Shown here: positions 30,953 through 62,633 of the stretch, one piece after another | Layout: the number at the start of each line of letters is the position of its first letter | Position numbering within the stretch: position 1 is the first letter of the stretch | DNA from: Minisyncoccota bacterium | Lineage (GTDB): Archaea > Nanobdellota > Nanobdellia > Pacearchaeales > GW2011-AR1 | Assembly: GCA_035453125.1 (NCBI GenBank) | Contig: DAOTCN010000001.1 | Coordinates: 85,061-149,060 of the forward strand | Direction of reading: 5' to 3' | Length of the DNA: 64,000 nucleotides | Notes under the pieces: generated by a model | Seen by the model: the letters and a program-made list of their open reading frames with translations, nothing else | Told to the model about the DNA's origin: nothing | The model's database searches: none | Made by a program: the position numbers and the translations under genes

Positions 30953-31072
30953 AATATACTTTATATTACAGAAAGATTAATAAATAGAGTAATATACAGT
31001 ATATTACAATGAAAAAGAGTTTGAAAGTTGTAATAGGAATAATCATGATTTTGTTTATTATTAGTTTTAATT

Positions 31073-31405
31073 TTGTACATATTAGACTCAAAACGGCTCC
31101 CTGAAAAACTTCATTTTAAAATTTCAGCACTGGGTCCAGAGTCTATAGATTCAACTGAAATTTGTAATAATATGTTCTCAAATGAGTTTAATTGTAAATC
31201 ATATAATGGATTATCTAGTAGGAAGAATTACATTTGCCAAATTAATTCTGAAAGTGAAAATTATGGGGATGCTCAATGTGGCAGTAATAATGGTAATCAG
31301 AAACTAAAATGGGTTGATTGTGATTGCGAAACAATTTATGACTTAGTGTTTTATAGTGCTCAAAATCAAAATACATATGATTGGACACCAACAAAGAAGG
31401 CATAA
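31073..31405 (+). CDS. small Cys-rich hypothetical protein (possibly the frameshifted remainder of a signal-peptide ORF at about 31012)
   Basis: 110 aa; an upstream out-of-frame mini-ORF MKKSLKVVIGIIMILFIISFNFV looks like its signal peptide. Confidence 0.25.
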   Translation: MYILDSKRLPEKLHFKISALGPESIDSTEICNNMFSNEFNCKSYNGLSSRKNYICQINSESENYGDAQCGSNNGNQKLKWVDCDCETIYDLVFYSAQNQNTYDWTPTKKA

Positions 31406-31439
31406 TCTTTATAAAAAAGATGTTAACAAACTAACAAAA

Positions 31440-32519
31440 ATGAAACAAATAAAAAAGAGGTTACTTATGGCATATTTATTCATTGGACTATTCTTAATAA
31501 TTTTTATGATTGAAAATGCAAGTGCTTTTTTTAGTAGAGATAAAGAAATCGGATTTATTAACACTAACGATAATTTTTACTCTTTTTCTTCAGACCTGAG
31601 TTCATTTAGTATAGAAGTTAATAATAGTCTTAATACTGAAGGAGCTAGTATTTATTTGGACACCAGCACTACCACTGATGGAGGATATTATGGTTCTCTT
31701 TACTATTTCAATAATAATGAAAAGTACGATTGTGAATTCACAGGATATTATAATGAAGGCATATCTGCAATGTTTGGAAACAAAAAACTTAGGTTTAATG
31801 GATTTATTACATGTAAAGAGAAAAATAATGGCATAATTTTACTAGGTCAAATTTCATCTAATCTTAAACTAGACTCTAATTGTAGAAGAAATTCAAATAT
31901 AAATTATTGTAAAGTAATAAGCGACGATCTCCCAGATTTTAGTTCAATAAACCTATTTTTATTTGAGGTTAATAATTCTCTACAAGACTTTCAACAAAAT
32001 ATTAAACTTAAAAATATTGAAACAACTCAATCTAGTCAAACCGAACAAATTACTAATCTAACTTTATGGAGAAATAATGTTAGTTTTGTTTTAGCAACAA
32101 ATTCTTCTCCAATAGGTAATGGGAGTTATTCTTATAATATCACAATTTATAATTTGACAAATATAAATCAAAGAATTTCATCCTTAGAAGCAAATCAAAC
32201 AAATATCACTGCAAGAGTATCGCTTCTTGAGTCATGGAAAGAATTCATTAATCGTGCTTTAGTTTCTTTAGATGAAATTGGTTTTGGTTTGAATAAATTA
32301 ACTGAAAGAGTTGTTGTATTAGAAAATAAATCAATAGTAATCCAAAATGGTTCTTTACCAAATTATTTCAAATATCTAAGTACTAGTGATAGAAAGACAA
32401 TGATTTGTGGTTATGCACAAGATAATCATCTAACACAAATAAATGACTTGGGATTAAATTGCAATATTACTTATAGACAAACCTCAACAAGAGAATATGC
32501 TACTTGTAAATGTAAATAA
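31440..32519 (+). CDS. secreted N-glycosylated surface protein
   Basis: Probable start MKQIKKRLLMAYLFIGLFLIIF (signal/TM) within the 31356-32519 ORF; many N-x-S/T sequons; C-terminal Cys pairs. Confidence 0.4.
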   Translation: MKQIKKRLLMAYLFIGLFLIIFMIENASAFFSRDKEIGFINTNDNFYSFSSDLSSFSIEVNNSLNTEGASIYLDTSTTTDGGYYGSLYYFNNNEKYDCEFTGYYNEGISAMFGNKKLRFNGFITCKEKNNGIILLGQISSNLKLDSNCRRNSNINYCKVISDDLPDFSSINLFLFEVNNSLQDFQQNIKLKNIETTQSSQTEQITNLTLWRNNVSFVLATNSSPIGNGSYSYNITIYNLTNINQRISSLEANQTNITARVSLLESWKEFINRALVSLDEIGFGLNKLTERVVVLENKSIVIQNGSLPNYFKYLSTSDRKTMICGYAQDNHLTQINDLGLNCNITYRQTSTREYATCKCK

Positions 32520-32573
32520 ATATCCTACTCTTTCAAAGCATTATCTTTCTTAATCTTCTTTCTAACTATAAAA

Positions 32574-33977
32574 ATGGAAGAAACGCTTTATGATAAACTT
32601 TGTGATATTAATAATTTATTTCTCGCTTTTGATAAAGCCAGAAAAGGAAAAACTAAAAGAAGATATGTAAAAAGATTTCAAAAGAATCTTAAAGAGAACT
32701 TAGAGAAGCTAAATAAAGAACTTGTAAATCAGACTTATGAACCTTGCCCGTTAAAGAATTTTATTTTAGGAGACCCAAAAACAAGAAAAATAAGCAAGTC
32801 TGCTTATAGAGATAGAGTTGTTAATCATGCCTTATGCAGTATAATTGTACCAATACTTGAAAAGAGTTTTATTTATGATTCTCATGCAAATCAAATAGGC
32901 AAAGGAACTTTAAAGGCAATAGAACGATTTGACAAGTTCAAAAGAAAAGTATCAAGAAATAATACTAGAGAATGTTATGTACTGAAAGCTGACATCAAAC
33001 ACTATTTTGAAGAAATAGACCATGATATATTAATAGGAATAATAAGAAGAAAAATTAAGGATGAAAAAGTTATTTGGCTTATAAAAAAGATACTTGCTGT
33101 AAGCCACAAAGAAAAAGGTATGCCATTAGGAAATTTAACATCGCAATTTTTCGCTAATCTGTATCTTAATGAATTAGACCAATTTGTAAAACATAAGTTA
33201 AGAGTCAAATATTATATTCGTTATGTTGATGACTTTGTAATTATGCATAATTCTAAACAACAGCTTGAAGAATGGAAAATTGAGATTAATAATTTTTTGA
33301 AAGAAAGACTAAAAATTGAATTGCATCCAAGTAAATCCCATATTTTAAGATTAAGCAGTGGAATAAACTTTTTAGGATTTAGAATATTCTTTTATCATAA
33401 ACTTATAAGATCAAGCAATTTGAAGAATCTTGAGAGAAGATTAAATAAGCTTAGAATATTGTTTGATGCTGAGTTGTTAAGCAGAGAAAAAGTTCTCGAA
33501 TCTTTAGAGGGCTGGTTAGCTTATTGTTCTCATGCAAATACCTATAAGTATAGAAAGTATTTAATCAGAATATTTAACAAATGTTTTTCTTATGGAAATA
33601 AATTATTTGTTCATAACAAAAAGAATTATATTAATTACATTAAGAAAGTTAGTGAAAGTGAATTACAATTTGCGGTTCAAAGAACATTATTCAATTATAA
33701 AAAAGGATTATCTATAAAAGAAATTGCAATTAAGCAGAGAATAAAAGAATCAACTGTCTGGGGTCATTTAGCTAATTTAATTGAACATAAGCAATTATCT
33801 ATATGGCAAGTTATTGATAATGAAAAAGCACGTAAGATTTTCAATAAAATTTATAGTCCAAAAGAGAGATTAAGGGATATTAAAAAGAGAATAAAAGATA
33901 ATTCAATAACTTATGATGAAATAGCTTGTGTAATGGCAAGTATTAAGTCTAAAAGAAAGTATTTACACATATTGTAA
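32574..33977 (+). CDS. diversity-generating retroelement reverse transcriptase with C-terminal helical (HTH/HRDC-like) extension
   Basis: 467 aa; RT motifs 1-2 (PKTRKISKSAYRDRVVNHAL), DGR-type motif 4 PLGNLTSQFFANLYL, motif 5 YIRYVDDFVIM; about 130-aa C-terminal extension containing GLSIKEIAIKQRIKESTVWGHL. Confidence 0.8.
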   Translation: MEETLYDKLCDINNLFLAFDKARKGKTKRRYVKRFQKNLKENLEKLNKELVNQTYEPCPLKNFILGDPKTRKISKSAYRDRVVNHALCSIIVPILEKSFIYDSHANQIGKGTLKAIERFDKFKRKVSRNNTRECYVLKADIKHYFEEIDHDILIGIIRRKIKDEKVIWLIKKILAVSHKEKGMPLGNLTSQFFANLYLNELDQFVKHKLRVKYYIRYVDDFVIMHNSKQQLEEWKIEINNFLKERLKIELHPSKSHILRLSSGINFLGFRIFFYHKLIRSSNLKNLERRLNKLRILFDAELLSREKVLESLEGWLAYCSHANTYKYRKYLIRIFNKCFSYGNKLFVHNKKNYINYIKKVSESELQFAVQRTLFNYKKGLSIKEIAIKQRIKESTVWGHLANLIEHKQLSIWQVIDNEKARKIFNKIYSPKERLRDIKKRIKDNSITYDEIACVMASIKSKRKYLHIL

Positions 33978-34032
33978 TTACTAAGTAGTAACTAACCGAA
34001 AGGTTTATAAATAGCTTATTTATTGATTTAGT

Positions 34033-34845
34033 ATGGCATTAAAATTAAATCCAGAAAGAGAAGTATATAGAGAATTTTATGGTCAGAATGTGGCTCAAAT
34101 GCCTCTATTAGTAGCTGACAGAAGAGTTCCTATGAATGTTGCTCAATTATTGCAAAGAAGATTAGATGTTAGAAATTCTGATGCTGATGTTAGAACTGCT
34201 TATCATGATAATTATTTTGACACTGGTGATGCTATTGCATATCATCCAGATGGCAGAGTTAAAGTTGTTCTTGATTCTCAAACATTAAGAGAAATTAATC
34301 CTAAAAGTCAGTTAACTAATGGAGCATTAGTCTTAACAGAAGATGCTTATAGAGCTTTAGATGGTGTTGAGTTTAAGAAAGGAAAACTTGAGAAAGTTAA
34401 TGAGGGTCTTTCAATAAAAGAAGTTAAAGCTCATCCAGTTTGGAAAGTTTTAACAAGAGAAGATAAGGCATTACTTGACGATTATGCTGATTGGGCTTTT
34501 ACAGAATATAGAGATAGATTTGCTCAAGGTTCTGATGTTGATGACATAAGAATAATGGGAATTTATCCAGATTCAGCTGGAGAAGCTCCAAAATTAAGGG
34601 CTTGGTGTGTCAACAGGCTCGAGGACGGGTCTAATGCTAATGGCAGGTACCTCCTTGGCGATGACAATGGTCGCTTCCTCGGTATAGCGCCGGAGGCGCT
34701 TAGTGCGCCGGGTAAGGGTGCTTTAAGTGTAAGATTATATACAGTTGCAGATGTTCAAAAAGCACAAAAACAATTAGAACAAATTGATTCAGTAGTAAGA
34801 CCAGAATCTATTAGTGATGTTAAGTCTTTAATATCAAGACTTTAA
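34033..34845 (+). CDS. DGR variable (target) protein
   Basis: 270 aa; VR encoded at about residues 189-219; AT-rich codons except the GC-rich VR; no signal peptide. Confidence 0.7.
   Translation: MALKLNPEREVYREFYGQNVAQMPLLVADRRVPMNVAQLLQRRLDVRNSDADVRTAYHDNYFDTGDAIAYHPDGRVKVVLDSQTLREINPKSQLTNGALVLTEDAYRALDGVEFKKGKLEKVNEGLSIKEVKAHPVWKVLTREDKALLDDYADWAFTEYRDRFAQGSDVDDIRIMGIYPDSAGEAPKLRAWCVNRLEDGSNANGRYLLGDDNGRFLGIAPEALSAPGKGALSVRLYTVADVQKAQKQLEQIDSVVRPESISDVKSLISRL
34598..34688 (+). repeat. DGR variable repeat (VR)
   Basis: 91 bp, 81/91 identical to TR at 35094-35184; all 10 mismatches lie at TR adenines. Confidence 0.8.
34687..34715 (+). promoter_or_regulatory. GC-rich inverted repeat at the 3' edge of VR (IMH-associated hairpin candidate)
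   Basis: GCGCC-GGA-GGCGC hairpin then a second GCGCCGG; absent downstream of TR, where homology stops. Confidence 0.4.
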
Positions 34846-35093
34846 TTATTTTATTTTTACAATTCTATACAAATATTTTTACTTGAAATTTCGCAAGAAA
34901 TGAAAGTTAAAGATTGTACAACAATCTTTTTATAATCGATTTAATATAGTTCTAAGTCCTGGCAACCGTGGAAACATGAGAAGCTGGGTTATACGCACTT
35001 CCACGACGGCAACATAGTTGTCATAAAATACAACCATAACACCTAATGTTGTGAAATGGTGGTGAGAAAGTTAAGTGGAAGAGCTATGCTCTG

Positions 35094-35184
35094 GGGCTTG
35101 GTATGTCAACAGGCTCGAGAACAGGTCTAATGCTAATGGCAGGAACAACCTTGACAATGACAATGGTCGCTTCCTCGGAATAAC
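35094..35184 (+). repeat. DGR template repeat (TR), non-coding
   Basis: 91 bp with 27 adenines, 10 substituted in VR; lies in an intergenic region where the overlapping 83-aa ORF is spurious. Confidence 0.8.
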
Positions 35185-35242
35185 TCAGTTGTTGTTTACA
35201 GGACACTTATTATTATATTTTATATCTATATTTATTAAACAA

Positions 35243-35419
35243 TTATTTCTTCCAATAAACAACCTTAGTTCCATCACTAAGAGCAATACCTTTAGACTTA
35301 TATCCCTTAAGATTTTTGTGAAGTAATTCATCTAATATCATAATTAAATCAACAGTTTTGTTAAACTCTTTTGCTGTTGATTTCTTTTTATCAGTTTTGA
35401 CTGTTAGAATTATTTTCAT
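35243..35419 (-). CDS. small hypothetical protein (58 aa)
   Basis: Minus-strand ORF MKIILTVKTDKK... immediately downstream of the 87-aa gene; not in the supplied ORF track. Confidence 0.25.
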   Translation of the reverse strand: MKIILTVKTDKKKSTAKEFNKTVDLIMILDELLHKNLKGYKSKGIALSDGTKVVYWKK

Positions 35420-35469
35420 CTAGGACAAAGATCGTCACTTGTATTTGAATCTTCTTCATTACTTAGAAA

Positions 35470-35733
35470 TTACTCTTGCCCTTGATTAGTTGATTGTTCT
35501 GCTTCAGGTTGATTTGCTTCTGCTTCCTGTTCTTGTTTAAGTCTTTCCAATCTTTTTACTAGATAATTATGAATAAGCAATCTAATTGCTAAACTAAAAC
35601 GTCCTTGGTCTTCATGTTTTACTTTATCTGTAAATCTTGAATCTTTTTTGATTGACTTATTAAAAAGCTCCATTTCTTTCTCAAAGTCCTTACCATAATA
35701 TACTTGTTTTGAATATCTAGGATTATTTGTCAT
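35470..35733 (-). CDS. small hypothetical protein with acidic/Q-rich tail
   Basis: 87 aa; possible small DNA-binding protein. Confidence 0.3.
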   Translation of the reverse strand: MTNNPRYSKQVYYGKDFEKEMELFNKSIKKDSRFTDKVKHEDQGRFSLAIRLLIHNYLVKRLERLKQEQEAEANQPEAEQSTNQGQE

Positions 35734-35983
35734 GAAAAAGAAGAGATCCTTGTGTTTTTATATCCCGCTCTTTTATGTATGATACATATGAGTATTGTAT
35801 ATACATTCCCCTATAAGTTTACCCCCATTGATTTTCTCTATATGTATTAAACACTATTTTTGGGACACCATTTCAAAACAAAATTAATAATGATGAAAAC
35901 CAAATAAACACATGTTAATTTGTTTAGTTTTTTTGGTCCTCTTTCCTTTGTAAAAATATCTTAAAATGTAGGGGGTATATTAT

Positions 35984-37555
35984 TTGCAAAAGGTTATTAA
36001 TAACCAATATCTTAGGATAGATATGTCAATAAACAATAAAGGTGACTTAGGGTTTGAACAGAAGCTTTGGGTTGCTGCTGATAAGATGAGAAGCAATAGG
36101 GATGCTTCCGAATATAAACATGTAGTCTTAGGTTTAATATTTCTAAAATATATTTCAGATGCTTTCAAAGAAGTTTATGAAGAAATAGCAAAAGACCCCT
36201 AAGGTGATCCTGAAGATGTAGATGAATATAAAGCAAGAAATGTCTTTTGGGTTCCTAAAGAATCTAGATGGGATCGTTTACAAAAGAATGCTAAACAACC
36301 AGTAATCGGAAAATTTATTGATGATGCAATGGATGCTATTGAAAAGGATAATCCTTCATTAAAAGGAGTTCTTCCAAAAGACTATGCTCGTCCTGCTTTA
36401 GATAAACAGAGATTAGGTGAACTAATTGATCTCATAGGATCAATAGCTTTGGGAGACAATGAAAGTAGAAGTAAAGATATACTTGGAAGAGTGTATGAAT
36501 ATTTTTTAGGACAATTTGCAGATGCTGAAGGAAAAAAAGGTGGACAGTTTTATACTCCTAGATGTATTGTTAAACTTCTTGTTCAAATGATTGAACCTTA
36601 TAAAGGAAGAGTTTTTGATCCGTGTTGCGGATCAGGTGGAATGTTTGTTCAAAGTGAAAAATTTGTTCAAAGTCACTCTGGAAGGTTAAATGATATTTCT
36701 ATTTTTGGACAAGAAAGTAATCCAACTACTTGGAAATTATGCAAGATGAATTTAGCAATTAGGGGTATTGATTCTTCTTTTATAAAATGGAATAATGAAG
36801 GAAGTTTTTTGAATGATGAACATAGAGATCTTAAAGCAGATTTTATTATTGCTAATCCTCCATTTAATGATTCAGACTGGAAAGGTGAACAATTAAAAGA
36901 AGACATAAGATGGAAATATAGAGTGCCTCCAACTGGAAATGCTAACTTCGCATGGGTTCAACATTTTATACACCATTTAGCACCACATGGAATGGCAGGT
37001 TTTGTTCTAGCTAACGGTTCTTTATCTTCAAATAATGGTGGAGAGGGAGAAATAAGAAAAAACATTATTGAAGCTGATTTAGTTGATTGTATTATTGCGA
37101 TGCCTTCACAGTTGTTTTATAATACTCAAATTCCTGCTTGTTTATGGTTTATTTCAAAAGACAAGAAAAATCATAAATTTAGAAATAGGGAAGGAGAAGT
37201 TTTGTTTATTGATGCAAGAAAATTAGGAAGTATGATTGATAGAAGACATAGAGATCTTACTGATGAAGATGTAAAAAAGATTTCTTCAATTTATCATGCT
37301 TGGAGAGGAGAAGGTGGAAAGTATGAAGATGTTATTGGATTATGCAAGTCTGTTAAGTTAGATGAAATAAGAAAGCATGGACATGTTCTTACTGCTGGAA
37401 GATATGTTGGATCTGAAGAAGTGGAAGAAGATCCAGAAGTCTTTAATGAAAAAATGAAAAGGCTTACAATAGAACTCGCAGAGCAATTCAAAGAGTCTGA
37501 TAAATTAGAAAAAGAGATCAAAGAAAACTTAGCTGGAATTGGCTGGAGGATATAG
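35984..37555 (+). pseudogene. hsdM: type I restriction-modification N6-adenine methyltransferase HsdM interrupted by an in-frame TAA; orphan (no hsdS or hsdR)
   Basis: ORFs 35984-36202 (HsdM N-domain LWVAADKMRSNRDASEYKHVVLGLIFLKYISD) and 36329-37555 (DPCCGSGG motif I, NPPF motif IV) share a frame separated by one TAA at 36200-36202; the intervening sequence translates in-frame. Confidence 0.7.
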
Positions 37556-37967: not shown

Positions 37968-38106
37968 GCGCTGCTAGTTTACCGGTAGAATATCTCGTTG
38001 CCAAGTAAAAAGAACCTACGGTTCTTCTTACGACATCTCCCTTGAGGTGTTAAAATGTAAGAAACGCAAAGACGAGGTGAACTGGGTTCAATTCCCAGGC
38101 GGCGCA
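37968..38106 (+). tRNA. tRNA-Gly (anticodon GCC) candidate with an intron of about 65-70 nt at position 37/38
   Basis: Acceptor GCGCTGC/GCGGCGC+A, anticodon stem TCTCG/CGAGG with loop TTGCCA|intron|A, T-arm CTGGG-TTCAATT-CCCAG; D-stem weak. Confidence 0.5.
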
Positions 38107-39650: not shown

Positions 39651-41258
39651 ATGGCTGATAATAAACAAGTATATGTTTTACCTGAAAATGTTCAAAGAAT
39701 GTTAGGTCAGGATGCTCAAAGAAATAATATTCTAGCTGCGAGAATAGTTGCAGATACTGTTAAAACAACTCTTGGACCGAAAGGTATGGATAAGATGCTT
39801 GTCGATTCTACAGGTAATGTTATTGTTACAAATGATGGAGTTACTATTCTTGAGGAAATGGATGTTGAACATCCTGCTGCAAAAATGATGGTTGAAATTG
39901 CAAAGACTCAGGAAAAAGAAGTTGGTGATGGAACTACTACTGCAGTTATGCTTGCCGGAAAATTGTTGGAAAATGCTGAAAAACTTTTAGATAAAAAAAT
40001 ACATCCAACAATAATAACAAAAGGTTATCAAATTGCCTCTGAAAAATCAATTCAAATACTTAATGATATTGCATCAAGAGTTACAACAGAAGATGATATT
40101 GCACTTAAACAATTAGCAATAACCTCTATGACTGGAAAAAGTATTGAAGGTGTAAAAGAAAAATTTTCAGATATTGTTGTTAATGCAGTTAAACTAGTAG
40201 AAGATTACGGGAAAATTGATTTAAATAATATTAAAATTGAAAAAATTCAGGGAGATAGTATTAAAGATAGTGAGCTGGTTTCTGGAATTGTTTTAGATAT
40301 AGAAAAAATTAACATTGATATGCCGAAGATTGTTGAAAATGCACGTATCTCTTTAGTTGATTTTCCAATTGAATTAAAAAATCCAGAAATTGAAACTAAA
40401 TTAAGCATTTCAAGTCCTGAAGAATTACAGAGTTTTGTTGAATCTGAAGAGATTATGTTAAGAGAGATAGTTAATAAAATTAAAAAGACTGGAGCAAATG
40501 TTATTTTTTGTCAAAAAGGTATTGATGATGTTGCACAATATTTTTTGACAAAGGCAAATATATATGCTTGTAGAAGAGTTTCAAAGAGTGATATGGAAAA
40601 ACTGTCTAAGGCAACTGGTGCAAAAATAGTTAGTAATTTAAATGAATTGAGCAGTGATGATTTAGGAAGTGCAAAAAGCGTTGAAGAAGTAAATGAAGGA
40701 AGTAATTTAATGACTTATGTTCGAGGATGTTTAAATCCAAAAGCAGTTACTATTTTGATTCGCGGTGGTTCTGAACATGTTCTTGATGAAACTGAAAGAG
40801 CTGTAAAAGATGGATTGGGAGATGTTAGTGCTGTACTTAGAGATGGGATGATTGTTGCTGGTGGTGGTGCTATTGAGATTGAACTTGCAAAGAAGTTAAG
40901 GGAGTTTTCTCAATCTCTTTCTGGAAGAGAACAATTAGCTGTTGAAGAGTTTGCTTCTTCCCTTGAATTTATACCAATAACTCTTTCTGAAAATGCAGGA
41001 ATGGATCCAATTGATGTTATTACTGAAATGAAATCTTGTCATGATAATGGCAAAAAAAATTTTGGTTTAAATCTTTTTAATGGAAAAATAGAGGACACTT
41101 TTTTAGCAGGAATAATTGAACCTTTGAAAGTTAAAACTCAAGCAATAAACTCAGCATCTGAAGTAGCTATTATGATCTTAAGAATTGATGATGTTATTGC
41201 TGCAAATAGTAAAAAACAATCTAATTCTGGAAGAAATTATTTGCAGGATTATGATTAG
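39651..41258 (+). CDS. ths: thermosome subunit (group II chaperonin)
   Basis: 535 aa; [21 protein letters not shown]-binding motifs, helical protrusion region. Confidence 0.95.
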
Positions 41259-53434: not shown

Positions 53435-54430
53435 ATGTCAGTAATATTAGGTATTGAATCAACAGCACATACATTTGGAATTGGAATTGTAAAAGATGGT
53501 AAAATTTTAGCTAATGTTAAAGAAACTTATACAACCGAAAAAGGAGGAATAATTCCTGTTGAGTCTGCAAAGCATCATGAAAAATTTTGTAAATTACTTT
53601 TGAAAAAAGCTTTTGATGAATGTGGAATGAGTTTTGAAAATGTTAATGCAATTGCATTTTCTCAGGCACCAGGTCTTGCTCCATGTTTGCTTGTTGGTTT
53701 AAGATTTGCAAAGAAAATTTCTAAAGAAAATAATATTCCTCTTGTTCCAGTAAATCATTGCGTTGCTCATCTTGAAATTGGAAGAATTACTGGTGCAAAA
53801 GATCCAGTAATGTTATATGCTTCTGGAGCAAACACACAAATAATTGCTTATGCATCTGAAAAATATAGAGTATTTGGAGAAACATTAGATATTGGTATTG
53901 GAAATTTTATTGATACATTTGCAAGATATACTGGATTAGGTTTTCCAGGAGGACCAAAAGTTGCTGAACTTGCTTTGAAATCAAATTCTGAAAAATACAT
54001 TGAGCTTCCGTATTCGATTAAAGGAATGGATGTTGCTTTTTCTGGAATGTTAACTAAATTAAGACAACTATTTGAAAGAAAACAAGCTACAATTGAGGAT
54101 CTTTCTTATTCACTTCAAGAAACTGCATTTGCAATGCTTGTTGAAGCAAGTGAGAGAGCACTTGCACATACTGGGAAAAAAGAGTTGTTGCTTGGAGGAG
54201 GGGTTGCATGCAATAAAAGACTTCAAGAGATGTGTAGAATAATGTGTGAGGAAAGAGGATGCAAGTTTTTTGTTCCTCCAAATTCTTTGCTTGTTGATAA
54301 TGGTGCAATGATTGCTTATCTTGGAGAAATACAATTTAAGTCTGGAATAAAATTTTCTGGAAAAGAAGCTGACAAACTTGACATAAATCCAAGGCAAAGA
54401 ACTGATCACATCAAAGTTACTTGGAGGTAA
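53435..54430 (+). CDS. kae1: tRNA N6-threonylcarbamoyladenosine synthase Kae1 (TsaD/OSGEP family)
   Basis: 331 aa; ASKHA fold; metal-binding H..H (VNHCVAH), LGGGVACN motif. Confidence 0.85.
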   Translation: MSVILGIESTAHTFGIGIVKDGKILANVKETYTTEKGGIIPVESAKHHEKFCKLLLKKAFDECGMSFENVNAIAFSQAPGLAPCLLVGLRFAKKISKENNIPLVPVNHCVAHLEIGRITGAKDPVMLYASGANTQIIAYASEKYRVFGETLDIGIGNFIDTFARYTGLGFPGGPKVAELALKSNSEKYIELPYSIKGMDVAFSGMLTKLRQLFERKQATIEDLSYSLQETAFAMLVEASERALAHTGKKELLLGGGVACNKRLQEMCRIMCEERGCKFFVPPNSLLVDNGAMIAYLGEIQFKSGIKFSGKEADKLDINPRQRTDHIKVTWR

Positions 54431-57003: not shown

Positions 57004-58902
57004 ATGGCACAAGAAAAAGATAATTATGATGCATCAAGTATCAAAGTTCTTGAAGGTCTTGAAGGTGTAAGAAAAAGACCTGCAATGTATATTGGAAGTA
57101 CTGGAAAAGAAGGTTTACATCATTTGGTTTATGAGATTGTTGATAATTCTGTTGATGAGTGTTTAGCAGGAATTTGTTCAACTATAAGAGTTAGTTTAAA
57201 TAAAGATGGTAGTGTGACTGTTGAAGATAATGGAAGAGGTATGCCTGTAGATATTCATCCAATTTATAAAAAACCTGCTATGGAAATTATTGTTACTAAG
57301 CTTCATGCTGGAGGAAAGTTTGATAGAAAGGCTTATGCTGTTTCTGGAGGCCTTCATGGTGTTGGTATTTCAGTTGTGGCTGCACTTTCTAAGAAAATGA
57401 CTGTAGAGGTTAAGAAAGATGGAAAAATTCATGCTCAGAGCTACCAAATCGGAAATCCGCTCGATTCTGTAAAGGTTATTGGAAGTTGTGAGAAAGCCTT
57501 GACTGGAACAAAAGTAACTTTTTTACCTGATGAAACAATTTTTTCTGTTACTAAGTTTGATTTTAATACTCTTATGACTAGATTTAGAGAAATATGTTTT
57601 TTGAATGCAGGTCTTAAAATAATTTTTACTGATGAAAATTCTGATAAAAAAGAAGAATTTCATTATGCTGGTGGTTTAATAGAATTTGTTAAATGGTTAG
57701 ATCGAGCAAGAAATTCTTTACATAAACCAGTATATTTTAAAAAATCTGCCGAAGATACTGTTGTTGAAGTTTCTTTTGAATATAATGAAGGTTATACTGA
57801 AAATATTTTTGGTTTTGTAAATACTATTAATACTATTGAAGGTGGAACTCATGTTTCAGGTTTTAAAACAGCGTTAACAAGAGCAATAAATGATTATGCA
57901 ACCAAAAAAGGAATTTTAAAAAATGGAGAAAAATTAGAAGGAGATGATGTTAGAGAAGGATTAACTGCAATTATTTCTTTAAGATTAAAAGAACCTCAGT
58001 TTGAAGGACAGACAAAAACAAAACTTGGAAATTCAGAAATTAAAGGTTTAGTTGATTCAGTTGTTTCAACTGCTCTTACAGAATTTTTTGAAGAAAATCC
58101 TTCAATTGCTAGCAAGATTGGTCAAAAAGCAAGTGCTGCACTTAAAGCGAGACAGGCTGCACAGAAAGCAAAAGAGCTTGTTAGAAGAAAAAATGCATTA
58201 GGTATGGGTGGACTTCCTGGAAAATTAGCTGATTGTTCTAGCAAAAAAAGAGAAGAAACAGAGTTGTATCTCGTAGAGGGAGAAAGTGCAGGTGGAACTG
58301 CTAAAGGTGCAAGAGATAAAGAGTTTCAAGCAATTCTTCCATTAAGAGGAAAAATTTTGAATGTTGAAAAATCGAATTCAGTTAAGGCACTTTCGTCTGA
58401 ACAAATTGCAAATTTAGTAACTGCAATTGGAACAGGAGTTGGAGAAGCTTTTGATATTGATAAATTGAGATACCATAAGATAATTGTTATGGCTGATGCA
58501 GATGTTGATGGACAACATATTAAGACTTTATTATTAACTTTCTTTTATAGATATATGCCTCAGTTAATTGAATCAGGACATATTTTTGTTGCTGTTGCTC
58601 CTTTATTTAAAATAAGAAAAGGACAACAAGATTATTATGTTTATTCAGATGAAGAATTGAAGAAGACTTTAGATAAACTTAGTGGAAAGAATGAAGTTAA
58701 TAGATTTAAAGGTCTTGGTGAAATGAATGATGAACAATTATGGGATACAACAATGAATCCTAAAACAAGAATATTAAAACAAGTTTTTGTTGAAGATGCA
58801 ATTGAAGCTGATGAAACATTTAGTATCTTAATGGGTGATTCAGTTGAACCAAGAAGAAGATTCATTGAAGAAAATAGTAAGGAGGCTGAGTTAGATCTTT
58901 AG
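57004..58902 (+). CDS. gyrB: DNA gyrase subunit B
   Basis: 632 aa; GHKL ATPase (LEGLEGVRKRPAMYIGS), Toprim (EGESAGG, PLRGKILN, DADVDGQHI). Confidence 0.95.
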   Translation: MAQEKDNYDASSIKVLEGLEGVRKRPAMYIGSTGKEGLHHLVYEIVDNSVDECLAGICSTIRVSLNKDGSVTVEDNGRGMPVDIHPIYKKPAMEIIVTKLHAGGKFDRKAYAVSGGLHGVGISVVAALSKKMTVEVKKDGKIHAQSYQIGNPLDSVKVIGSCEKALTGTKVTFLPDETIFSVTKFDFNTLMTRFREICFLNAGLKIIFTDENSDKKEEFHYAGGLIEFVKWLDRARNSLHKPVYFKKSAEDTVVEVSFEYNEGYTENIFGFVNTINTIEGGTHVSGFKTALTRAINDYATKKGILKNGEKLEGDDVREGLTAIISLRLKEPQFEGQTKTKLGNSEIKGLVDSVVSTALTEFFEENPSIASKIGQKASAALKARQAAQKAKELVRRKNALGMGGLPGKLADCSSKKREETELYLVEGESAGGTAKGARDKEFQAILPLRGKILNVEKSNSVKALSSEQIANLVTAIGTGVGEAFDIDKLRYHKIIVMADADVDGQHIKTLLLTFFYRYMPQLIESGHIFVAVAPLFKIRKGQQDYYVYSDEELKKTLDKLSGKNEVNRFKGLGEMNDEQLWDTTMNPKTRILKQVFVEDAIEADETFSILMGDSVEPRRRFIEENSKEAELDL

Positions 58903-58958: not shown

Positions 58959-61900
58959 ATGACACCAGAAGAAAAATCAGAAGCTGAACAACGAAGAGAA
59001 AAACTTAAGAAAAATATTGAAGCAAAAGAGTTAGTTGAAGCTGAAATATCTGGTGAAATGAGAAAGGCTTATATTAATTATGCAATGAGTGTTATTGTTG
59101 CAAGAGCTTTGCCTGCTGCTGAAGATGGTTTGAAACCAGTTCATAGAAGAATTTTGTGGGCAATGAATGAGATTGGACTTCAAGCTAATAAACCAACAAA
59201 AAAATCTGCAAGAATTGTTGGAGATGTTCTTGGTAAATATCATCCTCATGGAGATGTTGCTGTTTATGATTCTTTAGTTAGAATGGCTCAACCATTTTCT
59301 TTAAGATATCCTTTAGTTAAAGGTCAAGGAAATTTTGGTTGTTTTACAGCAGATACAAAAGTTAAACTTGTTAGTGGAAGAGATTTATCTTTTTCAGAAT
59401 TAATTGAAGAACATCAACAAGGAAAGAGAAATTTTACATTTACTGTTGATGATGGGAAAATAAAGATAGCTGAAATAAAAAATCCAAGATTAACAAGAGA
59501 AAATGCAGAGATTATGAAAGTTATTTTAGATAATGGTGAAGAGATAAAATGTACACTTAATCATAAGTTTATGTTAAAAGATGGAAGTTATAAAGAAGCT
59601 AATGAATTAGAATCTGGAGATTCTTTAATGCCGGCTTATTTTAGACTTTCTACAAAACAAGATGATTCAAAAGCTATTGGTTATACAATGGTTTTACAGC
59701 CAAATTCTGATTCATGGAATTTTGTTCATATTTTGTCTGATGAGTGGAATATAAACAATGGAGTTTATACAAATTCTGCAGGAAGAGTAAGACATCATGT
59801 GAATTTTAATAAGTTAAATAATAATCCTGATAATATCCGAAGAATGAACTGGAAGGATCATTGGCAAACACATTATGATTTTATTTCTACTAAGCATAAA
59901 ATTGATCCAGAATATAGATTTAAACTAGATGAAGGAAGAAAAAAGTTTTGGGATAATCCAGAAAATAGAGAAATTTATTCTAAAAGAATGAGTCAGAGAA
60001 ATTTTGCAAACTGGAAAAATGAAGAATATAGAAATGAAATGACTTTAACTTTAAGTGAAGTAAATAAAACATACTTGAAAGAACATCCTGAAAGAGTTGA
60101 AGAAATAAGTAAAACTGCTTCAATAACTATGAAAAGATTATGGCAAATTCCTGAATATAAGCAGTTGTTTCATGATAAAATTGTTACAAATAATAAGAAA
60201 AGAGAAACAAATTTAACTGGAAAGAAAAAGTTTGTTAAAATTTGTGATTATTTATTAAAAAATAATTTAGAATTAAATCAAGAAAATTTTGAAAAAGTTA
60301 GAAAAGAAGTTTTTGGTACAAAAAGCTTTACCTCTTGGGATTTAGGAGTTAAGAAGTATTTTGAGAATGATAAAAATTTAATTTTATGTGAAATTAACGG
60401 TAATCATAAAGTTGTTTCAACTGAACTATTACATGAGTTTGTTGATGTTTATGATATAACAATAGATAAGACACATAATTTTGCTCTTGCCTCTGGAGTT
60501 TTTGTTCATAATTCAATGGATGGTGATCCTCCAGCAGCTATGAGGTATACTGAAGCTAAAATGGAAAAAATTTCTGAAGAATTATTAGAAGATATTGAAA
60601 AGAAAACTGTAAAAATGCTTTCTAATTTTGATAATACTCTTGATGAACCTGAATTACTTCCAGGTAAAGTTCCTAATTTGTTAATTAATGGAGCATCAGG
60701 AATTGCTGTTGGTATGGCTACAAATATGCCTCCACATAATTTAACAGATGTTTGTGATGCTATTATAAGATATATTGAAGATCCTGAAGTTAAAATTGAA
60801 GAATTGATTAAAATTGTTAAAGCTCCTGATTTTCCAACAGGCGGTTATGTTTCTGGTGAAATGAAAAATATGTATCTAACTGGAAGAGGAAAGATGGTTG
60901 TTAGAGGAAGAACAAAGATTGATGACTCGGGGAATAAACCAAAAATAATCATTTCTGAGATTCCTTATATGGTTAATAAAGCAACACTTATTGAAGATAT
61001 TGCTAATCTTGTAAAAGATAAAAAACTTCCAGATATTTCAGATATAAGAGATGAATCTGCAAAGGGAAAAGTAAGAGTTGTTATTGAATTACGAAAAGAA
61101 TCTGATCCTAAATTTACATTAAATAGACTATTTAAGTTTACAAGATTACAAGACCGGTTTGATGCAATTATGCTTGCTTTAGTTAATGGTCAGCCTAAAT
61201 TATTGAATTTGAAACAACTTATAGAATGTTATGTTAATCATAGAAGAAAAGTTATAAGGAAAAGATCTGAATTTGATTTGAATAAAGCAGAGGATAGACT
61301 TCATATTGTTTTAGGGTTATTAATTGCACAGAAGAATATTGATGAAATAATTCATTTAATTAAAAAATCAAAAGCAACTGCAGAAGCTTCACAAGCTTTA
61401 CAAACTAAATACGGTCTTTCACAAAAACAAGCTCAAGCTATTCTTGAGATAAGATTACAACAGTTAACTTCTCTTGAACTTGAAAAATTGAAAAAAGAAG
61501 AGACTGATTTGAATGAACTAATTTTTGAATTGAAAAAAATACTTGGCGATGAAAAAGAAATTTTGAAAATAATTAAGAAAGAGTTAAATGAGATAAAGAA
61601 AAATTATGGTGATGAAAGAAAAACTACAATACTTGAAACAGTAAAGGAATTTGAAGAAAAAGACCTTGTAAGTAAAGAAGATGCTGTTATTACAGTAACT
61701 GATAAAGGTTATATAAAAAGAATGCCTTTCAAAGCTTATCATGAGCAAAAAAGAGGCGGAAAAGGAATTATTGGAACTGAACTTTCAACTGATGATTTTG
61801 TAAAACAAATAATTAGTTGTTCAACACATGATTATTTATTATTATTTACTAAACGAGGAAGAATGTTTTGGCTTAAAGCTTATAAAGTTCCTGAAACGCA

Positions 61901-62633
61901 AAGATATGGAAAAGGACAAGCAGTCATTAATCTATTGAATATTAAAGATGATTTTGTTACAAATATTATCTCAGTTAAAGATTTTAAAGGATATTTGTTT
62001 ATGGTTACAAAGAATGGACAAGTTAAAAAAATTGATTTGAAATTATTTGCAAAGCCAAGATCTGGAGGTATAAGAATAATTAATCTTCCTTTGGACAATT
62101 CAGATAGTGTTGTTGATGTAAGAGTTATTTCAGAAAAACAAGAAGTAATGCTTATGACTGCAGAAGGACAGGCAATTAGATTTAATTCAGATGAAGTAAG
62201 ATCAATGGGAAGAGCAAGTTATGGTGTTGCTGGAATTAAACTTGAAAAAGATTATGTTGTGAGTATGGAGGTTGTTCCTATTGAAAAAACAAAAGAAACA
62301 ATTATGACTGTTACTGAAAAAGGATATGGAAAAAGAAGTGAAATTGAAGATTATAGATTAACTGGAAGAGCAGGAAAAGGTGTAATCAATGTTAAAGTTA
62401 CAGATAAAACTGGAAAGGTTATTAGAACAATTGCAGTTGAAGAAAGAGATACGATTGTTGTAACAACAAAGAAAGGAATTGTAATAAGAACTCCTATAAA
62501 ATCAATAAGGGTTATGGGTAGAGCAACTCAAGGCGTTAGAGTGATAAATTTGAAAGAAGGAGATAAAGTTGGAGATGTTACAAAGCTTGTTGAAGGTGAG
62601 AATGAAGACGGAACTATTCAGGAAAAGTTATGA
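58959..62633 (+). CDS. gyrA: DNA gyrase subunit A, intein-containing precursor
   Basis: 1224 aa; extein junction GQGNFG|(intein)|[14 protein letters not shown] with active-site Tyr; beta-pinwheel C-terminal domain. Confidence 0.9.
59340..60512 (+). mobile_element. GyrA intein (391 aa) with HNH-type homing endonuclease segment
   Basis: Starts with Cys after GNFG, ends ..VFVHN followed by Ser; internal [26 protein letters not shown] resembles an HNH motif. Confidence 0.85.

Follow-up and report, generated by a model that had tools for sequence, protein, structure and literature searches.

Diversity-generating retroelements (DGRs) have been known in DPANN archaea since 2015–2017, and the work of Paul et al. 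2017 is said to be the principal survey of DGRs from DPANN and CPR. To our knowledge, Avd is essential in the only DGR that has been studied biochemically. The DUSEL4 Nanoarchaeota DGRs (PMC4372165, PMC5006420, and PDB 5IOO) and the locus analysed here were both chromosomal and both had a DPANN host, and they further shared (i) an internal variable region (VR) with about 46–51 residues after it, as in AvpA, (ii) a hairpin with a trinucleotide loop, placed within the target gene directly past VR (PMC4372165), (iii) IMH/IMH* ends that differed at adenines, and (iv) a core fold, predicted for the present target, matching that of AvpA, with a sequence fitting RFxGV at the end of VR in both proteins. 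The DPANN DGRs summarised in PMC5758913 came from the same host groups as the homologues of this locus (Pacearchaeota, Woesearchaeota, and Nanoarchaeota), and these homologues came for the most part from the same MAG collections of groundwater; like this locus, the summarised DGRs were compact, were often without avd, and had targets of unknown function. The Bordetella phage BPP-1 DGR and this locus had homologous reverse transcriptases (RTs; 147 bits) and adenine-specific differences, and in each, the template region (TR) had its 3′ end in a duplex, beside a second duplex with the other strand just upstream of TR, the counterparts being TR:Sp and avd:Sp in BPP-1 (bioRxiv 10.1101/2023.10.23.563531) and the predicted helices H2 and P2 here (see below). 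They differed in the arrangement of these parts: the primer and stop strands were located 3′ of TR, in Sp, in BPP-1, while their presumed equivalents here were located 5′ of TR, in RT-16, with only about 20 nt left after TR; moreover, at this locus no Avd-like ORF was found nearby, the RT had a fused HTH_40 domain, and the target was not a phage tail fibre.

The window (the whole 64,000-nt stretch of DNA analysed, lying in a 754-kb contig) very probably contains a chromosomal DGR that conforms to the DPANN-archaeal type and in which all sequence components are intact. The components, namely RT-HTH_40, target, hairpin, promoter, RT-16, TR, and 3′ tail, were all arranged on one strand within 2.7 kb (Table 1). 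The initial annotation had called a complete DGR composed of RT, target with VR, and TR, spanning 32574–35184; each of these components was present and passed an independent test, but the 3′ limit had been set too short, as the DGR reached ~35204 and took in RT-16 with its own TATA box. The element is a DGR of a previously described archaeal type, and its host is a DPANN archaeon. The DPANN context proposed earlier was borne out by thermosome, MCM, archaeal Kae1, and an intron-containing tRNA in the window, and all homologues with a taxonomic name came from Pacearchaeota, Woesearchaeota, or Nanoarchaeota MAGs.

Table 1. Components of the DGR and their coordinates in the window
Feature	Coordinates	Strand	Remarks
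RT gene, 467 aa	32574..33977	+	Pfam RVT_1 4.7e-25, HTH_40 2.6e-16
Target (variable-protein) gene, 270 aa	34033..34845	+	Predicted AvpA-like C-type-lectin fold; ~50-residue helical tail past VR
VR	34598..34688	+	Encodes target residues 189–219 (RAWCVNRLEDGSNANGRYLLGDDNGRFLGIA); direct repeat with TR
GC-rich segment, 81% GC	34687..34712	+	IMH-like end, hairpin, second overlapping palindrome
TATA-like box of TR-RNA unit (TTTTTATA)	34927..34934	+	Fixed distance to helix H1 across loci
Predicted DGR RNA: 5′ end, RT-16, TR, 3′ tail	34956..35204	+	Fold, consensus, covariation
RT-16 RNA, Rfam RF03019	34958..35092	+	73.8 bits vs gathering 50, E = 1.5e-9
TR	35094..35184	+	27 A, 8 AAY codons; direct repeat with VR
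TR 3′ boundary, IMH*-like AUAACUCAGUU	35180..35190	+	Predicted helix H2 with RT-16 34982–34992 (AGCUGGGUUAU)

The genes flanking the cassette were chromosomal housekeeping genes (thermosome, PEP synthase-like, MCM, and gyrase). The order RT, target, and RT-16–TR on one strand represented a minority among homologous loci, the majority of which had target, RT-16–TR, and then RT on the opposite strand. Homologous cassettes occupied differing genomic contexts across many DPANN MAGs, and for many target-family members the contig showed neither RT nor TR within 5 kb. Immediately downstream of the cassette were a split hsdM gene and a tRNA; the tRNA, called from Rfam, carried a ~70-nt insertion, and ARAGORN reported no tRNA over the window. 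Small neighbouring ORFs gave weak, sub-threshold matches to viral capsid families.

The repeat search disclosed a single direct-repeat family (34598–34686/35094–35182, offset 496 nt), which was lengthened by base-by-base comparison to 34598–34688/35094–35184, giving 91 nt, of which 81 (89%) were identical and 10 mismatched, and reproducing the 91-bp VR inside the 270-aa ORF and the 91-bp intergenic TR reported before. TR was located 1.1 kb from the RT stop codon, and ORF 35075–35326, which overlapped it, was a mechanical call without homologues. All 10 mismatches fell on TR adenines, with VR carrying G at six, T at three, and C at one of them; the chance of such a 10/10 pattern was 1.3e-6 (27 A in the 91-nt TR). 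Across 22 homologous TR/VR pairs, differences were found at 280/501 A sites vs 4/1303 non-A sites (Fisher p = 2.6e-181). The TR pattern (A→N, up to 3 mismatches) matched just these two copies in the window and nothing in 100 shuffles. In a pattern search of metagenome DNA, L061, L063, and L070 were dropped as chance matches, and L056 and L064 were dropped as one truncated, diverged copy present twice. The GC contents of VR and TR (0.56 and 0.48, respectively) exceeded that of the window (0.28), in line with the GC enrichment over the flanks noted earlier. TR contained 15 codons able to change amino acid, which made about 1.8e13 amino-acid combinations available, with no stop codon reachable via adenine changes.

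The initial annotation had attributed all 10 mismatches to adenine-specific mutagenesis; their restriction to adenines was upheld on realignment, but two of them, at TR 35179 and 35183, are probably fixed IMH/IMH* boundary differences and not products of random mutagenesis. VR and TR were unlike at 35179 in 20/22 homologous pairs, with VR mostly T, and VR had G at 35183 in 15/15 gaplessly aligned pairs with A in TR; no adenines were present in the 14 nt preceding 35179. The remaining eight mismatches fell in hypervariable codons.

The homology of the two repeats ended with ATAGCGCC in VR vs ATAACTCA in TR (IMH vs diverged IMH*). Directly after VR, there was a hairpin GCGCC-GGA-GGCGC at 34687–34699 (family consensus GCGCC-RGA-GGCGC), which was overlapped by a second palindrome GGCGC-TTAGT-GCGCC at 34695–34709; the GCG and CCG codons of the hairpin segment were otherwise rare in the target ORF. 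The hairpin was found in 38/46 distinct family genes, and four further genes had a compensated stem GCACC…GGTGC, which entailed replacement of Ala by Val. For 50 nt of DNA surrounding the hairpin, folding yielded a z-score of just −0.67, which was uninformative because any DNA so GC-rich folds, and thus the evidence for the hairpin consisted of its conservation and stem compensation. Judged from sequence, IMH, IMH*, and a downstream hairpin all appeared to be present as in DGRs.

The RT ORF was full length and was composed of an RT domain (residues 69–271), a thumb region (to about 330), and a C-terminal HTH_40 (368–454). It contained the motifs MPLGNLTSQ and YVDD, and the LGxxxSQ (PLGNLTSQ) and YVDD signatures reported earlier were both found to align with those of the 8ub7 RT (LGNLTSQ opposite IGSLTSQ and YVDD opposite YMDD) in an alignment spanning fingers, palm, and thumb. 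The 328-aa RT of 8ub7 was the best PDB relative (147 bits vs ~83 bits for group II intron RTs). We take this chain to be BPP-1 bRT from its length of 328 aa and from the bRT sequence; the Bordetella phage records among the RT matches supported this assignment. The RT also matched the PHROG 1423 reverse transcriptase (2.9e-120), and its best match among phage and virus records was the ANMV-1 DGR RT (41% identity). The best NCBIfam model was group_II_RT_mat at 164 bits, far under its cut-off of 300. By these sequence affinities, the RT belongs to the DGR clade, as the initial annotation had held against a group II type. Some database sources labelled homologous RTs 'retron-type reverse transcriptase'.

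RVT_1 and HTH_40 occurred together in 119/120 best RT homologues. The search for Avd-like ORFs over about 3 kb around the cassette found none, and no such ORF was conserved across the homologous cassettes; it might be speculated that the fused HTH_40 takes over the nucleic-acid-binding role of phage Avd. DGR cassettes without avd have been discussed, Avd being not universal among catalogued DGRs (PMC5758913), and so its absence does not exclude DGR membership.

The target is predicted to be an AvpA-type variable protein with a C-type-lectin fold. AvpA (5IOO) was the sole fold match of the predicted model, by two methods, on the confident core, while the VR part of the model had low confidence (pLDDT 31–34). 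The target sequence had no match in Pfam, PHROGs, NCBIfam, or PDB, and neither the single sequence nor two profiles (44 and 72 family sequences) reached 5ioo at E up to 10; the link to AvpA thus rests on predicted fold plus motifs. The conserved motifs of the AvpA family are GxxVVVYAH, HPxxxPFxG, and RFxGV (PMC5006420), and their counterparts, compared by eye, were as follows: (i) RFLGI (target residues 214–218) fitted RFxGV, (ii) GDAIAYH (65–71) resembled GxxVVVYAH but was one residue shorter, and (iii) HPVWKVL (134–140) shared just HP with HPxxxPFxG. The target family comprised more than 1100 clusters, every named member of which was from DPANN archaea, and no relatives were found in 2.9 million viral contigs. 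In the family alignment, the poorly conserved columns were those matching TR adenines and no others. The earlier suggestion that each DGR instance defines a new hypervariable protein did not hold here, as the target sits in a large family with the predicted fold of the already solved AvpA.

The RT-16 family was originally placed merely near RT genes, with RT-10 alone tied to DGRs (PMC5737381), and the literature search found no paper assigning a role to RT-16. The RT-16 match in the window covered the whole Rfam model (positions 1–158). Differing from the Rfam description, RT-16 was always fused to TR, ending 0–2 nt before it in 16/16 related loci (17/17 tested, this locus included), and long-range pairing with the 3′ flank of TR competed for the base of its 5′ hairpin. 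Upstream, TTTTATA ended exactly 21 nt before the GT opening helix H1 in 18/24 listed loci, a count that rose to 20/24 after hand correction of the window and L003, with a spacing of 22–23 nt in the other four; from archaeal promoter geometry, we infer that this TATA-like box is the promoter of the TR RNA. A T-rich stretch followed CAGGAC in most loci; the terminator and the priming nucleotide of the TR RNA are putative.

The predicted DGR RNA folded at −78.3 kcal/mol (MFE; z = −3.25). Two long-range helices were placed around TR: H1 (34956–34961 with 35199–35204), joining the 5′ and 3′ ends of the RNA, and H2 (Table 1). Both were predicted independently by the RNAalifold consensus, and together they were 84% paired vs at most 43% when slid, with Watson-Crick compensations seen. 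The covariation of H2 in alignment A2 involved pairs 26–48 (GC 13, AU 5), 29–45 (UA 20, CG 2), and 27–47 (GU 16, GC 6), and the internal RT-16 helix P2 (34995–35004 with 35075–35084) had several compensated pairs. Covariation thus supports long-range helices enclosing TR. The Rfam helix P1 (34958–34963 with 34983–34988) excludes H1 and H2 and was itself 96% paired, while the H1/H2 conformer was energetically preferred to the alternative in 21/21 RNAs; because of this exclusion, either the RNA may switch between forms or the long-range model may be incomplete. On this model, 35179, where pairing past H2 ends, would be the 3′-most adenine open to mutation. The data favoured neither outcome: the difference at this site (see above) was mostly to T and seemed fixed, and the 14 nt before it offered no adenines.

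A tentative proposal, to which we would give somewhat less than even weight, is that RT-16 serves as the functional RNA in archaeal DGRs that lack Avd and carry RT-HTH_40, which make up a large clade. RT-16 would be a re-ordered equivalent of BPP-1 Sp, with the stop helix P2 and a primer-like strand (34982–34992, after which comes the invariant A34993) both located 5′ of the template, and would toggle between the P1 hairpin and the H1/H2 fold presenting TR to RT. The mechanism of the DGR would probably run as follows. An RNA of ~250 nt (34956 to about 35204) would be made from its own promoter, its ends would pair through H1, and the segment right past TR would pair with RT-16 through H2, leaving TR looped out between H2 and P2. 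If the Bordetella phage DGR is taken as the model, H2 would serve as the template:primer duplex and P2 as the stop duplex; a primer duplex adjoining a stop duplex is the logic of BPP-1 (bioRxiv 10.1101/2023.10.23.563531). RT would start cDNA at the TR 3′ end, possibly primed from A34993, misincorporate opposite adenines, and halt at P2. The resulting cDNA of ~85 nt would replace VR, with the common non-adenine sequence, the IMH-like end, and the hairpin directing it to that site. The outcome would be 15 rewritten codons, and the surface by which the lectin-fold protein binds its ligand could take as many as about 1.8e13 forms.

Diversification appeared evident at the family level, which is not a statement on this strain: the nine proteins of sister cluster P0071 were identical over residues 1–186, hypervariable at 187–205, and identical everywhere outside 187–205. 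The protein of this locus was a singleton cluster, present on 3 contigs, with no VR variants in a collection of 15 billion proteins, and the seven sequences of sister cluster P0072 had an invariant VR with scattered changes elsewhere, this frozen VR indicating that inactive copies exist in the family. These data, together with the many family members on contigs without RT or TR nearby, would suit a relic, that is, a formerly active DGR that produced the adenine-only differences but no longer diversifies its target, VR being now a fixed part of the gene. Such a relic is unlikely here, since the RT ORF was full length with its catalytic motifs kept, RT-16, H1 and H2, the TATA box, and the hairpin were all intact, and the 91-nt TR/VR pair had zero non-adenine differences, though drift after inactivation would yield some.

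The cassette could alternatively be a part of an integrated virus or mobile element and diversify a viral receptor-binding protein as in BPP-1 or ANMV-1, to which the ANMV-1 affinity of the RT among virus records, the weak capsid matches of small neighbouring ORFs, and the split hsdM gene and tRNA just downstream would lend some colour. Such an origin is very improbable, because the target had no relatives in the viral contigs, neither the target nor its neighbours had PHROG matches, the flanks were housekeeping genes, and the contexts of homologous cassettes differed across many DPANN MAGs. That the repeat is a plain duplication or a gene-conversion tract, its adenine pattern coincidental and the adjacent RT an unrelated one of the retron or group II intron type, was effectively refuted despite the 'retron-type' labels and the top group_II_RT_mat model, given the adenine statistics at the locus and family-wide, the failure of Rfam to find group II intron RNA domains, the affinity of the RT to the 8ub7 RT and the ANMV-1 DGR RT over group II or retron RTs, and its LGxxxSQ motif.

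As DPANN DGRs are known and the fold of this target type is solved, the chromosomal DGR described here adds a well-formed example and no new principle. It is useful as a clean, complete reference cassette, and since all parts are on one strand within 2.7 kb, an Avd-independent DGR could conveniently be reconstituted from it in a heterologous host. Through the constant RT-16–TR fusion and the enclosing helices, an RNA family with no role so far gains one that can be tested, which may be of interest for DGR mechanism and for orphan Rfam families. The fusion and the helices also suggest that RNA lying on the opposite side of the template can supply the primer/stop duplex logic seen in phage. If RT-16 is indeed a re-ordered Sp, the architecture of the DGR RNP would be conserved in logic and not in connectivity, and Avd would not be needed for cis-priming.

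A direct-repeat search of 31000-37000 returned one family only (34598-34686 and 35094-35182), which was widened to two 91-nt copies, the variable region (VR, 34598-34688) and the template region (TR, 35094-35184), matching the location given in the initial annotation. Base-by-base realignment displayed 10 mismatches, and the earlier claim that they were confined to TR adenines held for 10 of 10, VR having G at six, T at three, and C at one of these sites; with 27 adenines among the 91 TR nucleotides, the probability that all 10 would fall on A was p = 1.3e-6. The A-to-N version of TR, used as a query, found two copies in the window (VR and TR) and zero matches in shuffled sequence. VR lay inside the 270-codon target ORF (34033-34845) and TR was intergenic (ORF 35075-35326 over TR, a mechanical call, was unsupported), and both were, as also noted before, GC-richer than their surroundings (G+C of 56% and 48%, respectively, vs. 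28% for the window). The window TR contained 8 AAY codons and 15 codons able to change amino acid, allowing ~1.8e13 protein variants with no stop codon attainable. The comparison of 22 TR/VR pairs from 18 loci gave differences at 280 of 501 A sites vs. 4 of the 1303 remaining sites (Fisher p = 2.6e-181), with A->G 164, A->T 96, and A->C 20. Five homologous loci (L019, L021, L026, L035, and L038) each harbored two tandem target paralogues, both VRs of which matched a single downstream TR with adenine-only differences, and thus a single TR served two targets there. The contigs of several loci stopped at or near VR or TR, as assemblers do at hypervariable repeats.

Features of the retroelement cassette and of its template RNA
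Feature	Position	Strand	Basis	Remark
reverse TRANSCRIPTASE (RT)	ORF 32574-33977		RVT_1 domain plus C-terminal HTH_40 domain	467 aa
Hairpin GCGCC-GGA-GGCGC	34687-34699	+		directly 3' of IMH boundary
RT-16 (RF03019)	34958-35092		Rfam, 73.8 bits vs. threshold 50	ends one base before TR
Long-range helix H1			MFE fold	5'-end GUCCUG with CAGGAC
Long-range helix H2	34982-34992 with 35180-35190		MFE fold	AGCUGGGUUAU with AUAACUCAGUU; TR 3' boundary
RT-16 helix P2	34995-35004 with 35075-35084		RNAalifold

The RT contained MPLGNLTSQ and YVDD, which confirmed the diversity-generating retroelement (DGR)-type motifs LGNLTSQ and YVDD reported for this ORF. Its best solved-structure match, by a wide margin, was the 328-residue RT of 8ub7-8ube (147 bits, E = 7e-42), aligned from the N-terminus to the thumb with IGSLTSQ and YMDD facing the window motifs, followed by group II intron and retron-type RTs at ~83 bits. 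Its length and sequence suggest that the 8ub7-8ube chain is the bRT of Bordetella phage. The RT of archaeal virus ANMV-1 (41% identity) ranked first among 50,697 phage and virus records, and the next matches were RT genes from other phages; the NCBIfam group II intron model gave 164 bits, well under its cut-off of 300. The RVT_1 plus HTH_40 architecture was shared by 119 of the 120 best homologues, the named ones among which belonged to Pacearchaeota, Nanoarchaeota, or unclassified archaea. This evidence places the predicted enzyme in the DGR clade. No ORF resembling Avd, the accessory protein of phage DGRs, was found within ~3 kb of the cassette, and no Avd-like gene was conserved across homologous cassettes; speculatively, the near-universal HTH_40 fusion could provide a nucleic-acid-binding function.

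The target protein had zero matches by sequence in Pfam, PHROGs, NCBIfam, or PDB. Its family was large: a word-indexed search returned 361 matches at 52-68% identity, and an exhaustive one gave 1156 clusters (50% identity). Species-representative genomes contained 52 loci, with titles of DPANN or unclassified archaeal MAGs in all cases except L026 and L042, which had bacterial titles; none was found in the viral contigs searched. An alignment of 44 members displayed a strongly conserved scaffold (67% mean column identity) with a sole variable stretch, RAWxVxRLxxRSxAxGRxxLDxxxGRF, whose variable positions were those templated by TR adenines. AvpA, the solved variable protein of Nanoarchaeota DGRs, has a C-type lectin fold of a new subclass; it has an internal VR followed by 46 residues and the motifs GxxVVVYAH, HPxxxPFxG, and RFxGV, of which IMH, the VR 3' end, encodes the third (Handa et al., PMC5006420). 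The target had 51 residues after VR compared to 46 in AvpA, RFLGI at its VR end, and GDAIAYH akin to GxxVVVYAH, but shared only HP with HPxxxPFxG. AvpA was not reached by sequence with profiles built from either 44 or 72 members of the family, and thus the target represented a separate sequence family; it appears to work like AvpA and to share its fold.

The 3' boundary of VR was marked by two TR positions: (i) at 35179, VR differed in 20 of 22 pairs, mostly having T, and (ii) at 35183, each of the 15 gaplessly aligned pairs with TR A there had G in VR, giving a nearly invariant Ala219. These two mismatches behave as fixed differences that would mark the boundary between IMH and IMH* (the TR 3' end), represented by ATAGCGCC in VR and ATAACTCA in TR. 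Of 46 distinct family genes, 38 had the hairpin that followed VR, with a GGA or AGA loop, and four further genes had GCACC...GGTGC, keeping the stem by a double change at the price of Ala->Val; the hairpin codons GCG and CCG were avoided by the remainder of the ORF. This conservation, compensation, and unusual codon usage together argued for selection on the nucleic acid. The same arrangement of hairpin-in-target and IMH/IMH* is found in DUSEL4 Nanoarchaeota DGRs, which have a trinucleotide-loop hairpin within the target gene and an IMH differing from IMH* at adenines (Paul et al., PMC4372165). A second palindrome, GGCGC-TTAGT-GCGCC (34695-34709, + strand), overlapped the 3' arm of this hairpin, and thus two mutually exclusive hairpins were possible; the second GC-rich arm GCGCCGGG was found in many, not all, family genes.

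The window's own target protein formed a singleton cluster, present on three contigs. A related cluster from a sister lineage, P0071, had nine members, each from different contigs, which were identical at residues 1-186 and, save two single-sequence substitutions, from 206 on, with up to 13 positions differing inside residues 187-205; this is the population-level pattern that the initial annotation proposed to look for by read mapping, and it shows DGR activity at the family level. Cluster P0072 had an invariant VR with substitutions scattered elsewhere, indicating that frozen copies also existed in the family. Many loci (L004, L005, L006, L011, L012, L014, L022, L024, and others) kept the GC-rich post-VR hairpin with no RT or TR in the examined locus DNA; such target genes could depend in trans on a DGR at another genomic site or be relics.

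RT-16 ended 0-2 nt 5' of TR in 16 of 16 related loci tested, irrespective of RT gene position and orientation. RT-1 to RT-19 were described only as motifs near RT genes, RT-10 being the sole one linked to a DGR (Weinberg et al., PMC5737381), and our literature search found no published role for RT-16. The distance from the end of TTTTATA to a conserved GT ahead of the Rfam start was exactly 21 nt in 18 of 24 listed loci (20 of 24 after hand correction of the window and L003) and 22-23 nt in the other four, a spacing consistent with a TATA box and transcription start of the archaeal type. CYAGGAC was present 15-25 nt 3' of TR in every locus, and most loci had a T-rich run after it. The distal RT-16 hairpin had a ~50-60-nt insertion with recurring TCTTAAATTCGTAAGAATTTGAGAGTCAGAAAT...TTTCTGA in L003, L010, L015, L016, L019, L020, and L013, and the 3' tail of L057 had a comparable stem-loop insertion; the insertion looks like an additional, optional hairpin module. 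L056 and L064, identical in sequence, had an RT-16 copy devoid of its 5' part (no GTCCTRG and no helix P1) and a TR-like segment departing from the family consensus at many non-adenine TR positions, which looks like a decayed RT-16/TR unit.

The MFE fold of 34956-35216 (-78.3 kcal/mol, z = -3.25) contained the two long-range helices H1 and H2. Across 22 distinct RNAs in a fixed-register alignment, these were 84% paired vs. at most 43% with the partner slid, and Watson-Crick compensation was found at (i) columns 6-71 (GC 14 and AU 7), (ii) columns 26-48 (GC 13 and AU 5, with one independent event in L015), and (iii) columns 29-45 (UA 20 and CG 2); paired-cell percentage, doubly changed cells, and covariation score were reached by none of 500 shuffles. 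From 12 full-length RNAs supplied without any hint, RNAalifold recovered H1, H2, and P2 with compensated pairs in each. The competing Rfam P1 base was 96% paired, chiefly via wobble-tolerant one-sided changes, and in constrained folding the H1/H2 conformer beat the P1-base conformer in 21 of 21 RNAs (means of -80.5 vs. -72.2 kcal/mol); the RNA may switch between the two forms.

In the Bordetella phage RNP, the TR:Sp duplex of template and primer adjoins the avd:Sp duplex, the other strand of which lies just upstream of TR; this second duplex halts cDNA synthesis, and priming occurs in cis with TR G117 as the first nucleotide copied (bioRxiv 10.1101/2023.10.23.563531). In the archaeal RNA, H2 covered the TR 3' boundary, its 5' strand was followed by the invariant A34993, by one further nucleotide (C34994), and then by P2, and the other P2 strand stopped nine nt (35085-35093) short of TR. 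By analogy, the two systems would share this duplex logic, but the archaeal primer-like and stop strands, unlike those of the phage, would lie 5' of the template within RT-16, with ~20 nt after TR. From this match we infer a stepwise model: the folded RNA would be bound by RT, TR would be copied from ~35179 with misincorporation opposite adenines, RT would halt at P2, and the cDNA would replace VR, with the IMH-like end and the hairpin as guides.

The window was archaeal chromosome, with genes for thermosome (39651-41258), MCM (628-2655), archaeal Kae1 (53435-54430), a PEP-utilising enzyme, and gyrase B and A. NCBI proteins identical to P0001/P0147 (e.g., HRZ85285.1, on a 753,673-bp contig) were labelled Candidatus Paceibacterota bacterium (CPR); given thermosome, MCM, and archaeal Kae1, the source MAG looks taxonomically mislabelled, and the organism looks like a Pacearchaeota-like archaeon. 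Four other loci were observed: (i) ORF 31356-32519 (+, 387 aa), directly upstream of RT, which had an N-terminal hydrophobic segment, many N-x-S/T sequons, and no family match, and is possibly a glycosylated surface protein; (ii) hsdM (type I restriction-modification methylase), split 126 nt apart into a 72-aa ORF with HsdM_N (35984-36202, +) and a 408-aa ORF with N6_Mtase (36329-37555, +), with no hsdS/hsdR evident beside it, which may reflect a pseudogene, frameshift, or assembly error; (iii) a tRNA gene (37968-38106, +; Rfam 40 bits), missed by ARAGORN in default mode, whose ~70-nt insertion in the anticodon-loop region is presumably an archaeal intron; and (iv) gyrA (58959-62633, +, 1224 aa), just downstream of gyrB (57004-58902), which matched GyrA models from ~residue 510 onward and an intein-type model at 125-547, and was thus intein-containing.

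The locus displayed the sequence-testable defining features of a DGR, Avd excepted (Avd is not universal), and its gene order was a minority arrangement among homologous loci. DPANN DGRs were reportedly surveyed by Paul et al. in 2017; these, together with the DUSEL4 Nanoarchaeota and AvpA DGRs, were the closest systems. The sole element with no precedent found in the literature was RT-16 as a TR-linked scaffold with helices enclosing the template; covariation supports this putative role of RT-16, with long-range helices around the template, and the assignment is amenable to experiment.
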